A stretch of DNA of 64,000 bases from Candidatus Zhuqueibacterota bacterium (GTDB lineage: Bacteria > Zhuqueibacterota > Zhuqueibacteria > JANLFK01 > Oleimicrobiaceae), in contig JANLFK010000007.1 in assembly GCA_024655945.1 (NCBI GenBank), forward strand, positions 133,123 to 197,122, given 5' to 3'. Position 1 is the first letter of the stretch. Every line of letters starts with the position of its first letter. A model generated the notes under the pieces. The model was given only the letters and a program-made list of their open reading frames with translations, was not told the DNA's origin and did not search any database. The position numbers and the translations under genes were made by a program. This document shows positions 26,525 to 32,104 of the stretch, in pieces.

Positions 26525-29503
26525 TGCGCGGCCCTCCTGAGCAGGGTCAGCATCTCATCGGCCCAGGCGACCACATCTTTGACCCCCGCCTGTACCAGTT
26601 CACGGTAAAGTCGTCGGCGCAATTCCCGTTCCTGCGCTTCGCTCACCGCCCAATGGGGAAACTCCAGGAAGGCCGGCTCGACTGCAACTGCCAGGCGTTC
26701 GACCGGTGCCGCAGCGAATCCTTTTTGCACTCGCAGCCACCAGGCCACGGCAAAGGCCTCGGGGGAAAGATGGCTCTCCCGGCGCTGCTCCTGGGCTTCC
26801 TGAAGATCGCGAACCAGAGCGGAGAGTTCCTGCAATGCCTGCTGGCTGTTCACCTGCCGTTCCTCGAAGGCGCGGCGGATGGCCTCGGCGCGCTCGCCGA
26901 TGGGGATCAAATGCGGCTCCTCCTTGCCCCTGGCTTCCACCAGGCGATGCAGTTCCCTGAGCAGGTTGAACACCTTGACCGTATCCGGTTTGTCCTCGGC
27001 GATGAGGGCCAAAAGCGCTCCGGCCCCGATCGCCCAGGTGGGCGACGGTTCGCGCACCGCGGCGGTGGCCGTGTGCTTCTGCACGATCCCGGCGGTCTTG
27101 CGCAGGAAGGATTTGTCCACCGGCACGTGCGGCTCGTAGGCCGCCCGCAGCAGGCGGTACATCGCTACCAGCCGCTGGTAGTCTTCCAGGTAGGGACGCA
27201 GGAGGGGATCGGGCGAGAGGATTTCGTAGAGTTCTTCCAGTTCGCGGAAGAAGCGGTAGAAGGCCTCGCGGGTTTCTTTCTCGCGGAAGCGCAGCAGAAT
27301 GGCTTCGGCGATTTTGTCGTTGTTCAGCACAGAGGGCATAGATGAAGAATATGAGGGCTCTGTGTTCTCCGTGTGCTCTGTGGTGAGATATTCGACGCGC
27401 CCCTGTGAAATCAACTCCGCAAAGCGCCGCTGGAGCACCTCGATGCCCTCGACTACCCCGCTGACATCCTGGGAGTCGAAGGCCAGCGCCCGCTCCAGGT
27501 TCTCGAAGACGCCGACGAAGTCGAGAATCAGCCCGCTGGTCTTGCGGCGACCGGATTCGTCCTCATAGGGGCGATTGACCCGGGCAATCGCCTGGAGCAG
27601 CACATGGGCCCGCATGGGTTTGTCCAGGTACATGCAGTATAGGATCGGCGCGTCGTAGCCGGTGAGCGGTTTTTCGGTGACGATGAGGATCTGTGGCTCC
27701 TCGTCCGGTTTGCGGAACGCCTTGCGCACGACGGCTTCTTGCTCATCGCTCAGGTGATAGTGCCGCAGTTCGGCCGGGTCATTGCACCCGCGGCTGATCA
27801 CCACCCGGCTCATCTCCGCCGGCAGGTAGCGATCCAGGGCCTCCTTGTACAGGCAGCAGGCCTCCCGAGCCACCGCCACCACGAAGGCCTTGTAACCCAT
27901 CGGCGCGACATAGTCGGGAAAGTGCTTCGCCACGAAGCGGGCGATTTTGCCCACCCGCTCGCGGTTTTTGAGCATGTTCTTGAGGGTGACGGCGCGGTCA
28001 AGCACCCGGTTGAGTTCTTGCACATCGGCCACGCCCTCCAGTTCCGCCACGGCCCAGAATTCCTGTTCCATGGCTTCGCGGTCCACCACCAGGTCGTTGG
28101 GCGCCATCTGATAGTGCAGCGGCACGGTGGTACCGTCCTCAGTAGACTGGCGAATCGAGTATTTGTCCAGGTAGGGGCGACCCCGCGGGTCGCCCGCATC
28201 ATCGGCGCCGAAGGTCTTAAAGGTGCCCTTGCCGTGGACGCTGCGGTCAATGGGTGTACCGGTGAAGCCGATGAAGACGGCGTTGGGCAGCGCGCCCATC
28301 AGGTAGTTGCCCAGGCCGCCGCCGGTGGAGCGATGGGCTTCGTCCACCAACACGAAGACGTTGCGCCGCGGGCAGAGGTTGGCGGGCATGGCGTCGAATT
28401 TGTGGATCATCGAGACGATGAGGCCGCGCGTGTCAGCCTGAAGCAGGTCGCGCAGGTGACGTTTGGAGCGCGCCAGGTGCACCCGTCCGAAACCGACCGC
28501 TTCCAGGTTCTGGAACAGTTGGCTCTCCAGTTCGTTGCGATCGACGATGAGCAGCACGGTGGGATTGTCGAAACGTCCGTCCTCGATCAGGCGGCGGGCG
28601 ATGGTCAGCATGGTGTAGGTTTTGCCGGAGCCTTGCGTGTGCCAGATCAGGCCGCGGCGGGGCGCCTCGGGGGCGGTCACTGCCTGATAGGAACTCGCCA
28701 GGACGCGCTCGGTGGCGCGCATCTGGTGCGGGCGCAGGACGATCTTTTGCAGTTCGCCATCCTTGCGGGCGAAGAGGATGTAATCGGTGAGCACGCGCAG
28801 CACGCGCCGCGGGGCAACGAAGGACTTCACCAGGGTTTCGTAATCGGGCAGGGGCGCACCGCTCTGCGCCCCCACCTCGGCCCGCCAGTTGAACAGCGTC
28901 TTGCGCGAGAGCGACCAGGTGGGGCCGTAGAAGAATTGCACCAGGTGGGTCAGGGCGAAGAGCTGCGCCTCGGCCATCAGTTCGGGGCCTTGCTCGTGGT
29001 AGCGCCGAATCTGGTCAAAGGCCTCGGCGATGCCTTCCGGCCGGGTGGCGGCCTTGGTTTCCCCCACGATCACAGGGACGCCGTTCACAAGAAACACCAC
29101 ATCTGCACGGATGGCGGTTCGGCCGCTCACAAAGCGGAATTCGTCGGTGACGTGGAGAATGTTGGCCTCTGGGCGCTCGGCGTCCAAAAGGCGCAAGTTG
29201 CGTTCCCGCCGCTCGGCCTCCACAAACACGGTTTTCAGCCCCTTCAGATACTCCCAGGTTCCCCTCGATGTTGGGGCGGATGCGCACCAGGCGGCCGACC
29301 ACCTCCTCGGCTTTGCTGACGGAATCCACCACGCCCGGGTTGAGACGCTGGATCTGCTCGATGAGCACCGACCGCAGCACGGGGACCCCCTCGCCCCCGC
29401 GCAGACGCAGCGCCTCGCCGGGGGAAAGGTATTCCCAACCTGCTTCAGTGGCGTAGCGGATGAGCGGGTTTTGAACAATGTGGCGTTCGGAGGAGATGGT
29501 CAT
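26521..29503 (-). pseudogene. hsdR: type I restriction enzyme R subunit HsdR, disrupted by a +1 frameshift near 29255-29270
   Basis: The N-terminal 83 aa (MTISSERHIVQNP...RIRPNIEGN) are in ORF 29015-29503. The rest (TWEYLKGLKTVFVEAE..., nuclease domain, helicase motifs GSGKT, DEAH-like VLVDEAHRS, GFTGTP) is in ORF 26521-29478, one frame over. The junction lies in a GGGG/CCCC run (ATCGAGGGGAACCTGGGAG). Deleting one G restores NIEGTWEYLKG. Confidence 0.8.
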
Positions 29504-30174
29504 GGTGTGTCCTCCAAAAGATGGGGACTTGTAGAAGTACCGCGCTGCTGTGCCCCCTGGATCGTCTCCCAGATCTTTTGTGCCAATGGATCATCGCCTG
29601 TGCGCTCCGGGTTATAGCGATCCAGATGCAAACGCAACGGGTTTTCGGCAATATATTGGCGAATGACTTCCAAAGTTTTATCATTACGAATAATGTGTTC
29701 ATAATAGTTCCGTTGCCACAGAGAAACGCCATAGGTGTTGGATAACGCATTGGTTCGTTTGGTGACCGCAGATTTGAATTGGCAAACAATCGCGCCAATG
29801 GGTGATGGAACCGGACCACATGGCCGTTTCGTATGGCCAACCGATGTAGGGGCGACCCGTCGGGTCGCCCCTACATCAACGATCCAAATGATGCCGTGAA
29901 TGTGATTGGGCATGACCACGAATTCATCGGCCCGCAATGGCACATACGGACGAATCCGCGCGGTTTTAAACCATTCCTCGCGCACCATTTCACCCAGCGC
30001 ATTGAGCCGCATCACCCCGTCCACCACACGACCGAACAGGTGCGTTCGGTCGTGCGTGACGATGGTGATGAAATACGCCCCGGGTTGGGTGTAATCGTAC
30101 CCTTTCAGGCGAATGGAACGCCGGTGGTGACGGGTTGGGTCATACGGACACACGAGGTTCCTCCTGCCGAACAC
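29500..30174 (-). CDS. REP-associated tyrosine transposase (RAYT; IS200/Y1-transposase-like), copy 1
   Basis: GTG start. RSIRLKGYDYTQPGAYFITIVTHDRTHLFG, HUH motif NHIHGIIWI, catalytic Tyr region WQRNYYEHIIRNDK. Stop overlaps the hsdR start. A 35-nt palindrome sits inside the coding sequence. Confidence 0.8.
   Translation of the reverse strand: MFGRRNLVCPYDPTRHHRRSIRLKGYDYTQPGAYFITIVTHDRTHLFGRVVDGVMRLNALGEMVREEWFKTARIRPYVPLRADEFVVMPNHIHGIIWIVDVGATRRVAPTSVGHTKRPCGPVPSPIGAIVCQFKSAVTKRTNALSNTYGVSLWQRNYYEHIIRNDKTLEVIRQYIAENPLRLHLDRYNPERTGDDPLAQKIWETIQGAQQRGTSTSPHLLEDTP
29843..29877. repeat. REP-like perfect palindrome inside RAYT copy 1
   Basis: GATGTAGGGGCGACCCGTCGGGTCGCCCCTACATC. The 29-nt core GTAGGGGCGACCCG(T/C)CGGGTCGCCCCTAC recurs at 31483-31511 and, degenerate, at 28171-28195. 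It is translated in-frame as VGATRRVAPT. Confidence 0.8.
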
Positions 30175-31482: not shown

Positions 31483-31511
31483 GTAGGGGCGACCCGCCGG
31501 GTCGCCCCTAC
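31483..31511. repeat. REP (repetitive extragenic palindrome) at the 3' end of RAYT copy 2
   Basis: GTAGGGGCGACCCGCCGGGTCGCCCCTAC is a perfect 29-nt palindrome that overlaps the RAYT2 stop codon and lies 38 nt upstream of the hsdS start. Confidence 0.8.
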
Positions 31512-32104
31512 CAGGTCGGGCGCGGGCCTGGGGGGGCGGGGCCAACCGTGGCGGCGTTGTAGCGGTCCAGGTGCCAGCGCAGCGGATTTTCGGCGATGTA
31601 GCGGCGAATGGTGTTCAGGGCGCCTTCGTTGCGGAGGATGTGTTGGTGATAGTTGCGTTGCCACACGGGCGGGCCGGGCGTGCCCCGCAGGGCGTTGATG
31701 CGACGGGTGACGGCGGATTTGAACGATCCAACGATAGCCCCCAGCGCCCCCGATGCCGGTCCGGATGGGCGGGCGTTTCTCGGTAAGGGCCACGCATGTG
31801 TCGCCCTTACGCGGTTTCGCGCGCCATCGGTTTCCACAATCCAAAGCATCCCATGAACGTGATTTTGCATCACCACGAAGGCGTCCAATTCCGCGTGCGG
31901 AAAATGGTTGGGAATAGCATCCCAACACGTCTGTACAATACGCCCGTATTCATTCAACACCATCTCCCCACCCACCACGGCCCCGAACAGGGAGGCGCGT
32001 TCGTGGGCGCAGATGGGGATGAAATACGCCCCCGGTTGGGTGTAATCGTACCCCTTCAACCGGATGGACCGGCGATGGTGGCGGTCGGGATCGTAAGGGG
32101 TCAT
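31508..32104 (-). CDS. REP-associated tyrosine transposase (RAYT), copy 2
   Basis: 198 aa from the ATG at 32104 (MTPYDPDRHHRRSIRLKGYDYTQPGAYF..., NHVHGMLWIV, WQRNYHQHILRNE). The ATG overlaps the hsdM TGA (ATGA). A GGAGGTG SD is present. About 60% identical to copy 1. Contains an internal 8-bp-arm palindrome GTAAGGGC-N12-GCCCTTAC (31783-31810). The track ORF to 32683 is a spurious extension. Confidence 0.8.
   Translation of the reverse strand: MTPYDPDRHHRRSIRLKGYDYTQPGAYFIPICAHERASLFGAVVGGEMVLNEYGRIVQTCWDAIPNHFPHAELDAFVVMQNHVHGMLWIVETDGARNRVRATHAWPLPRNARPSGPASGALGAIVGSFKSAVTRRINALRGTPGPPVWQRNYHQHILRNEGALNTIRRYIAENPLRWHLDRYNAATVGPAPPGPRPTW

Follow-up and report, generated by a model that had tools for sequence, protein, structure and literature searches.

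GTAG/CTAC double-foot palindromes lie in-frame within RAYT and hsdR genes of a type I restriction-modification operon

The stretch of DNA analysed here, called the window, comprises 64,000 nucleotides (positions 133,123 to 197,122, forward strand) of contig JANLFK010000007.1 from a Candidatus Zhuqueibacterota genome (GenBank assembly GCA_024655945.1). It contains a type I restriction-modification (R-M) operon that also carries two genes for transposases associated with repetitive extragenic palindromes (REPs), that is, for REP-associated tyrosine transposases (RAYTs), which we call RAYT1 and RAYT2. Short palindromes lie within and between the genes of this operon, some of them translated as part of the encoded proteins, and this report concerns what these palindromes are and how they may have come to lie there. 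The region forms a single minus-strand operon in the order hsdM-RAYT2-hsdS-RAYT1-hsdR-YgjP-like, in which neighbours overlap at start and stop codons. Its genes are as follows.

32101-33759, minus strand: hsdM, with HsdM_N and N6_Mtase domains
31508-32104, minus strand: RAYT2, Y1 HUH and TnpA_REP-like, its start overlapping the hsdM stop
30140-31444, minus strand: hsdS, with two Methylase_S domains
29500-30174, minus strand: RAYT1, Y1 HUH and TnpA_REP-like; the database protein begins at 30153
26521-29503, minus strand: hsdR, with HSDR_N, SWI2_SNF2/ResIII and T1R_D3 domains, its frame broken
26129-26524, minus strand: gene for a YgjP-like metallopeptidase, the last of the operon, as it likewise is in related operons

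All type I R-M domains are present in the hsdM, hsdS and hsdR genes of the window. RAYT1 overlaps its neighbours at both ends, at the stop of hsdS and at the start of hsdR (ATGA). Relative to its orthologues, hsdR has lost its frame through an 8-nt deletion at about 29256/29257 (AAC CGT GAG GCC TGG became AAC C TGG), which leaves an N-terminal open reading frame (ORF) at 29015-29503 and a main ORF at 26521-29478. The break marks either a pseudogene or an assembly error.

The exact 29-nt palindrome of this operon is GTAGGGGCGACCCG-N-CGGGTCGCCCCTAC. The corresponding pattern, GTAGGGGCGACCCGNCGGGTCGCCCCTAC, has exactly two matches in the 64 kb, at 29846-29874 and 31483-31511, where 100 shuffles gave an expectation of 0. 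Together with a derivative and a relic, they make up the following set, which is confined to 3.4 kb and has no further members in the window.

29846-29874, no strand assigned: core of the intact REP in RAYT1, within a perfect 35-nt palindrome with 17-nt arms (29843-29877)
31483-31511, no strand assigned: intact REP between RAYT2 and hsdS, differing from the RAYT1 copy at the loop base only
28171-28199, no strand assigned: REP derivative in hsdR, with 9-bp arms at 28175-28195
31783-31810, no strand assigned: decayed 28-nt REP in RAYT2, GTAAGGGCGACACATGCGTGGCCCTTAC, in the homologous loop and of a different sequence type

An earlier reading of the letters alone (the sequence-only reading) had placed the 29-nt palindrome at the first two sites, with 35 nt including flanks in RAYT1 and the translation VGATRRVAPT, and all of this was confirmed; the translated segment lies in the loop after the HUH strand. 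The same reading took the copy at 31483-31511 for extragenic. It overlaps the last codons of RAYT2, and its CTAC/GTAG foot provides the TAG stop of that gene (31508-31510). The close derivative that had been noticed in hsdR as the source of GDPRGRPY proved to match the 29-mer at 25 of 29 positions, with one foot missing; its arms are GGGCGACCC and the complement, and it is translated as AGDPRGRP(Y), which includes GDPRGRPY. A fourth palindrome had been described in RAYT2, at the position equivalent to that in RAYT1, as 8-bp arms around 12 nt. The position stands, but the arms do not: the better description is a 28-nt palindrome with two internal mismatches (GTAAGGGC...GCCCTTAC), similar to the GTAGGGGCGACGCATGCGTCGCCCCTAC type of the related locus L035 (also L054, one foot base altered).

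When folded as single-stranded DNA, the four elements gave −20.7, −16.9, −11.4 and −9.9 kcal/mol, with z-scores of −8.9, −6.5, −2.9 and −2.8. GTAG REPs are recognised as palindromes of 20-40 bp with terminal GTAG (Di Nocera et al. 2013; Nunvar 2010), a description that fits the elements of the window, and are further characterised by high copy number and dispersal through the genome. The window palindromes are GTAG/CTAC "double-foot" REPs. The external REPs nearest to RAYT1 are 1.3 kb off on either side, with none adjacent, and RAYT2 has the intact REP at its 3′ end. An Rfam scan of positions 25000-35000 (E ≤ 1) returned only two chance-level matches and no known RNA family; one of the two was a weak match of a REP to the tail of an enterobacterial small RNA. 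The terminator and promoter scan gave no terminator-like site at any REP of the window, the hairpins being without a T-run.

RAYT1 and RAYT2 share 56% identity. A "transposase" from a metagenome-assembled genome (MAG) of candidate division KSB1 has the same sequence as RAYT1 (100% identity), and the protein collection contains over 8000 relatives of RAYT1. With the domain split by the REP, both proteins score below the family cut-offs, at 22.1 and 19.9 bits for Pfam Y1_Tnp (PF01797; cut-off 23) and at 63 and 56 bits for NCBIfam REP_Tyr_transpos (NF047646; cut-off 80). These matches fall in two pieces in both proteins, divided by the loop insert, and annotation pipelines miss such genes for this reason. 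The motifs are NHIH, WQRNY and YIAENP in RAYT1 and NHVH and YIAENP in RAYT2. In YIAENP the Y, I, N and P of the YIxNNP motif are kept and its first N is replaced by E, and in the alignment the entire RAYT1 clade has YIxENP.

Placement in the superfamily by fold applies to RAYT1, the one of the two whose structure was predicted. Its AlphaFold model (predicted local distance difference test, pLDDT, 75.9) has the Y1 HUH fold, and in the PDB it comes closest to IS608 TnpA and to 4ER8, the E. coli RAYT. The Foldseek match to 4ER8 has E = 4e-5, and the sequence similarity is weak (E = 0.03). LWQRNYYEHIIRN of RAYT1 aligns with IWQPRFWEHAIRN of 4ER8. The alignment with E. coli TnpA_REP covers the HUH histidines, WQ..YEH.IR and the Y...NP helix, and in it RAYT1 has the GTAG-reading and catalytic W, Q, E, H, R, Y and N of that enzyme. 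The roles of the aligned residues are metal binding, GTAG recognition and catalysis, and the residues of E. coli TnpA_REP that read GTAG are W94, Q95, E100, H101 and R104 (Quentin et al. 2018, PMC6006769). In the model, residues 99-125 form a coil with pLDDT of about 50 that separates strand 91-98 from helix 126-145. PADLOC gave no match for RAYT1 or RAYT2. The family is essentially chromosomal, with three weak matches in the plasmid collection and two in viral contigs.

We then considered whether the palindromes could be a coding coincidence, produced by GC-rich codon usage or by selection acting on VGATRRVAPT and GDPRGRPY as peptides. One feature speaks for this: the outer GTAGGGGC and GCCCCTAC are always read as V-G-A...A-P-T or P-L, so that a conserved peptide could mimic a conserved foot. 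However, at least 120 metagenome contigs contained the exact 29-mer, in most cases at a distance from RAYT genes. Among the 129 copies listed, 13 were in RAYT loops, 2 within 300 nt of a RAYT gene and 113 in contigs free of RAYT genes, where they occur in coding DNA in more than one frame as well as in non-coding DNA. This dispersal excludes a codon-driven origin. The inner stems, moreover, vary between genes and are perfectly complementary throughout, the peptide falls in a disordered loop of the model, and the hsdR peptide is confined to a pair of KSB1 genomes, as described below. With the metagenomic spread of the 29-mer and its complementary, variable stems, coincidence is effectively refuted, and we regard it as extremely improbable.

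The hsdR copy was examined by comparison with 120 HsdR orthologues (57-82% identical). No insert is present in 118 of them, which read FG.DD-P.G-YLDKY at the place where the window has FGADDAGDPRGRPYLDK. The sole other insert of equal length, GGEHAGRPY, occurs in a second KSB1 MAG; it shares GGTCGCCCCTAC with the window, and its symmetry is gone. None of the 120 orthologues outside this KSB1 pair has the insert peptide. By these alignments the insert is lineage-specific, and it probably predates the split of the two KSB1 genomes. In DNA, window positions 28160-28215 were compared with loci L201, L212 and L213: the uninserted site reads GAC GAC CCG CAG GGC TAC (DDPQGY), and the window reads GAT GAT GCG GGC GAC CCG CGG GGT CGC CCC TAC. 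Modelled within the helicase fragment, the insert of eight residues is a coil before strand 194-198, with pLDDT of about 56-60, so both the hsdR and the RAYT1 segments fall in low-confidence loops, as the sequence-only reading had proposed to check. Its proposal that hairpins were inserted and kept in-frame within ORFs is correct at its core, and its interpretation as a whole is supported in part: the hsdR insert is lineage-specific, and the RAYT loop is hypervariable, and short in members free of REPs. Orthologues that encode the same peptides by non-palindromic DNA, which would have spoken for coincidence, were not found; decay of the palindrome goes together with decay of the peptide.

A second lineage-specific, in-frame insert lies in hsdR at 27324-27381 (TEHTENTEPSYSSSMPSVL), between the helicase and C-terminal domains. 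A diverged form is present in the other KSB1 MAG (L203), and the insert is absent from L202. The hsdR gene of L204 is split at this site, and that of L209 bears a GTAG REP here. As a candidate for a further hairpin element the insert was rejected, since it folds no better than shuffles (z = −0.46) and has no second copy in the window.

To place the RAYT1 copy among its relatives, 80 loci were taken from genomes of many phyla by protein similarity alone. The HxH...WQRNY frame was located in 65 of them, which with the two window genes gives 67 genes; the other 15 loci stand outside the hairpin statistics. An alignment of 44 relatives shows that the stretch after HIHGIIWIVD is hypervariable in length, and it contains peptides such as VGATRRVAPT, VGAQRRCAPT, VGARRRRAPT and VGAHGRAPL, at times in two or three copies. 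The loop DNA of the 67 genes measures 42-324 nt. A hairpin scoring 8 or more was found in the loop DNA of 56 of the 67 genes (8.3 kb) and in the rest of the ORF of 19 of the 67 (35.9 kb). Most loop hairpins have the form GTAGGGGC-variable stem-GCCCCTAC, in which the outer 8 nt are common across phyla and the inner stem varies yet stays complementary. The 5′ feet are read as V-G in 40 cases and as x-R-G in 12, and never in the phase that gives the stop TAG.

A matching hairpin (at most 2-3 mismatches) was also present outside the gene in 26 of the 56, mostly just upstream and downstream, which identifies the loop copy as the cognate REP. Flanking hairpins were seen in 35 of the 61 relatives with enough flanking sequence. 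Among the members without a loop hairpin, one group is free of REPs and has a short loop (14-23 codons), and the other has decayed relics beside intact external REPs (for example L023, L043, L045 and RAYT2). The copy number of the loop REP in the family runs from 0 to about 5, some members having 2-5 tandem copies. Some RAYT genes have a second in-frame REP site just before the helix of the catalytic tyrosine, for example RVGAAGRSPLHA (L209 6595-6622, L212 7505-7538 and L215 7486-7515; in the alignment also P0014, P0040, P0052 and P0099). Both window RAYTs lack a REP at this second site.

A hairpin at the same place in 84% of family members could be there on purpose, as a cis-acting element: either a protected "seed" substrate that travels with the gene, or a DNA or RNA structure that senses or limits RAYT expression. 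We regard this as rather unlikely, although several observations favour it. RAYT genes embedded in R-M operons retain an intact loop copy even where their junctions overlap and no REPs flank them. The loop REP is 27/29 identical across orthologues near synonymous saturation, within a loop that otherwise varies in length and sequence, and lineage differences are compensatory (GTAA...TTAC in L205, GTCG...CGAC in L214). However, several genes, RAYT2 included, carry decayed relics beside intact external REPs, and others have a short loop free of REPs, so that the loop copy number varies from none upward. The same REPs also lie in-frame in hsdM, hsdS and hsdR, where regulation specific to RAYT is not expected; the hairpins have no terminator-like tail and belong to no Rfam family; and the conservation may also stem from renewal by active copies.

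The density of the hairpins falls with distance from the RAYT gene. Footed hairpins number 1.3-1.8 per kb inside RAYT genes, 0.4-0.5 within 500 nt of them and about 0.05 beyond 2 kb. Around R-M-embedded RAYT genes they amount to 0.09-0.21 per kb out to 7 kb, that is, across the operon, and related operons contain other in-frame REPs in hsdM, hsdS and hsdR.

We consider it likely that the palindromes are copies of one double-foot REP whose hairpin is recognised by RAYT1 and RAYT2, enzymes of the type of TnpA_Y1 subclass 2.4. A RAYT of this kind would act on single-stranded hairpins, preferentially near its own gene, and because of this preference new copies, or conversion tracts from other copies, would keep arriving around that gene. 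In an operon without gaps, the copies that survive would be those that keep the frame and lie in tolerant, disordered loops; two of the three reading phases would avoid the TAG of GTAG. VGATRRVAPT and GDPRGRPY would then be by-products. Old copies would decay, as the RAYT2 relic may have done, and others, such as the RAYT1 copy, would be renewed.

Some findings sit uneasily with this scheme. That insertion prefers sites in cis is something we infer from the spatial pattern alone. The window holds only three copies and one relic in 64 kb, all of them clustered, and its source genome is therefore not visibly rich in REPs. The hsdR insert is a net gain of 15 nt and not a clean 29-nt insertion, and the ancestral hsdR site (GACCCGCAGGGCTAC) already resembles the core and foot of the REP (GACCCGC.GGG...CTAC). 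This last likeness suggests that the hsdR REP was grafted by homology-assisted copying, rather than by simple transposition. The loop REP of the RAYT1 type, finally, is 27/29 identical among the window, L205 and L209 at a synonymous divergence (dS) of about 1.1-1.4, and these three genes have no flanking REPs. A pure passenger does not fit a loop REP kept at so high a dS; its persistence calls for either renewal or selection acting on the hairpin. Both the conservation of the loop REP and, on the other side, the relics, REP-free loops, varying copy number and REPs in hsd genes are accounted for if active copies of the element renew it.

Four related hsdS genes have an in-frame REP near residues 217-248 (L209 5310-5331, L211 5315-5342, L212 6307-6352 and L215 6283-6310). 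The REP sequences differ among the four; the site is therefore fixed, and the element turns over. No in-frame REP was seen in the hsdS gene of the window.

The association of RAYT genes with type I R-M operons extends beyond the window. When close homologues of RAYT1 were looked up by exact sequence, six of eight lay between hsdS and hsdR in the same type of operon, in which a PF18766 HsdR gene is followed by a YgjP-like gene, and had overlapping junctions. The hosts include Chloroflexus aggregans, Methylothermus subterraneus and Thermogemmata fonticola. The remaining two adjoin genes for an Eco57I-type methylase and an SNF2 helicase. Two contigs with HsdR orthologues have the same operon layout. 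Across these operons, identity to the window is 72-79% for HsdR, 79-85% for HsdM and 61-76% for RAYT, and the ratio of nonsynonymous to synonymous divergence (dN/dS) of RAYT, 0.14-0.3, is comparable to that of the Hsd genes. These data show that RAYT and the operon proteins have co-diverged under similar purifying selection.

Among the 80 more distant loci, seven have a co-directional type I hsdR downstream, in four cases within about 200 nt. Their Hsd proteins are 26-33% identical to those of the window (about 70% for L002), and the RAYTs concerned are scattered in a rough neighbour-joining tree. The chance of seven in 80 would be about 4e-10 at an assumed background of 0.2%, this background being our own estimate. 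The RAYT loci linked to R-M genes are the following.

Window: 26129-33759
Related operons: L203, L204, L205-L213 and L215
Distant loci: L002, L005, L022, L034, L045, L067 and L069

One might suppose from this linkage that the REPs in the hsd and RAYT genes are no selfish debris but serve a joint function of the RAYT and the type I R-M system, for example through an HUH nuclease acting on hairpins extruded during HsdR translocation, or through a back-up effector. In favour stand the position of the RAYT gene between hsdS and hsdR in operons from four phyla and its recurrence beside hsdR at distant loci, the similar dN/dS of RAYT, HsdM and HsdR, and the recurrence of in-frame REPs at fixed sites in the hsdS, hsdM and hsdR genes of these operons. 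We nevertheless think a joint function unlikely. PADLOC does not match the RAYT, and most members of the subclass are not beside R-M genes. Operons with damage (hsdR frameshifted in the window and split in L203 and L204, hsdM split in L212 and L215) fit a mutagenic passenger equally well. The hsdS-hsdR interval is, besides, a known landing place for accessory genes, which also counts against a joint function.

A broader proposal is that the RAYTs of this subclass are a long-term, selected part of a widespread operon, hsdM-(accessory)-hsdS-RAYT-hsdR-YgjP, and that the in-frame REPs are the footprint of this partnership. We put it forward tentatively, as a possibility whose odds are against it. 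Operons of this order with overlapping junctions occur in KSB1, Chloroflexota, Planctomycetota and Gammaproteobacteria. The key RAYT papers contained no link of RAYTs to R-M, and full-text searches gave none to R-M or to defence, although defence-island surveys may note one. If the link is functional, it would give a class of RAYTs its long-sought host role, that of a nuclease for single-stranded DNA hairpins working with, or guarded by, a restriction system.

The accessory genes of the operon family include a MNT/HEPN toxin-antitoxin pair and an Mrr-like nuclease (L205-L208, L211 and L209-L210). The nuclease separates hsdM from hsdS, and the pair occupies either this interval or the one from RAYT to hsdR. 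In Chloroflexus aggregans (CP001337; L212 1449-2172), seven GGGCACGGC(G)ATGCCGTGCCC hairpins are spaced by about 111 nt. This array, some 2 kb upstream of the R-M operon, occupies part of a 161-aa ORF without a Pfam match and extends just beyond it.

Several known systems resemble the elements of the window. Rickettsia palindromic elements (RPEs) are about 100-150 bp long, much longer than the hairpins here, and we know of no RAYT dedicated to them. The likeness to RPEs that the sequence-only reading had drawn holds in so far as both are small palindromic repeats lying in-frame in functional ORFs, presumably in tolerant surface segments. Kinship does not follow: according to Di Nocera et al. 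(2013, PMC3733652), RPEs terminate in CGTC, whereas the window elements have GTAG/CTAC termini and 28-29 nt. Membership in the RPEs was rejected on these defining features, and the likeness is one of analogy only. REPINs (Bertels and Rainey 2011) share GTAG-type units, and a RAYT that is present in single copy and passed on vertically is believed to mobilise them. They consist of two inverted REPs and a spacer, and we rejected membership in this class too, since all copies in the window are single palindromes (28-29 nt, up to 35 nt in full).

E. coli TnpA_REP in complex with a REP hairpin (PDB 4ER8; Messing et al. 2012) shares with RAYT1 the Y1 HUH fold, the HUH motif, the Y...NP helix and the WQ..(F/Y)(W/Y)EH.IR segment that reads the GTAG foot. 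It differs in belonging to subclass 2.2 and in having no loop insert; its REPs are of the single-foot type with a bulged stem, and they flank the gene, with none inside.

Intragenic GTAG REPs are closer to the present case. Di Nocera, De Gregorio and Rocco (2013, BMC Genomics 14:522, PMC3733652) described GTAG REPs that lie wholly within ORFs and are read in-frame, and whose termini often give a flanking ORF its TAG stop; they proposed that the intragenic inserts lie in linkers or loops. GTAG-tagged palindromes of 20-40 bp in-frame, and the supply of a TAG stop as at RAYT2, are common to both sets. Theirs are mostly in replication and repair genes of Proteobacteria and a few others, and no transposase or restriction gene is in their table (PMC3733652).

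The nearest relatives are those of TnpA_Y1 subclass 2.4, which corresponds to RAYT group 4 of Bertels (Quentin, Siguier, Chandler and Fichant 2018, BMC Genomics 19:475, PMC6006769). Its described traits are the motifs NH[IFV]H, WQ and YIxNNP, a variable insert between beta3 and alphaC, long or "double-foot" REPs, and REPs inside the tnpA_REP genes with the frame intact (PMC6006769). A REPtron arrangement, with canonical REPs at most about 1 kb from the gene, is a further trait of the subclass. The window RAYTs agree with it in the NH[IFV]H and WQ motifs, in a Y motif of the form YIxxNP, in their length (some 200 aa) and in an insert of variable length and sequence between beta3 (HuH) and alphaC. 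Further points in common are double-foot REPs with 5′ GT[AG]G and 3′ C[TC]AC, frame-keeping REPs within the gene, and a wide, patchy taxonomy. They differ in having YIAENP in place of YIxNNP, and RAYT1 is not directly flanked by REPs because its ends overlap hsdS and hsdR. Quentin et al. (2018) took the loop insert as probably neutral and mentioned no link to R-M (PMC6006769).

Hairpins within ORFs are thus already published as a phenomenon, of which the window is a new example. By themselves they change little, and they show that a mobile hairpin is tolerated inside proteins. Less expected is the finding that a restriction-modification operon has RAYT genes as fixed components. The reason why bacteria retain RAYTs in single copy and by vertical descent is an open question (Bertels et al. 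2017). Co-divergence with a type I R-M operon, under purifying selection, makes the present RAYT clade a concrete system for testing it, and this context could matter more than the hairpins.

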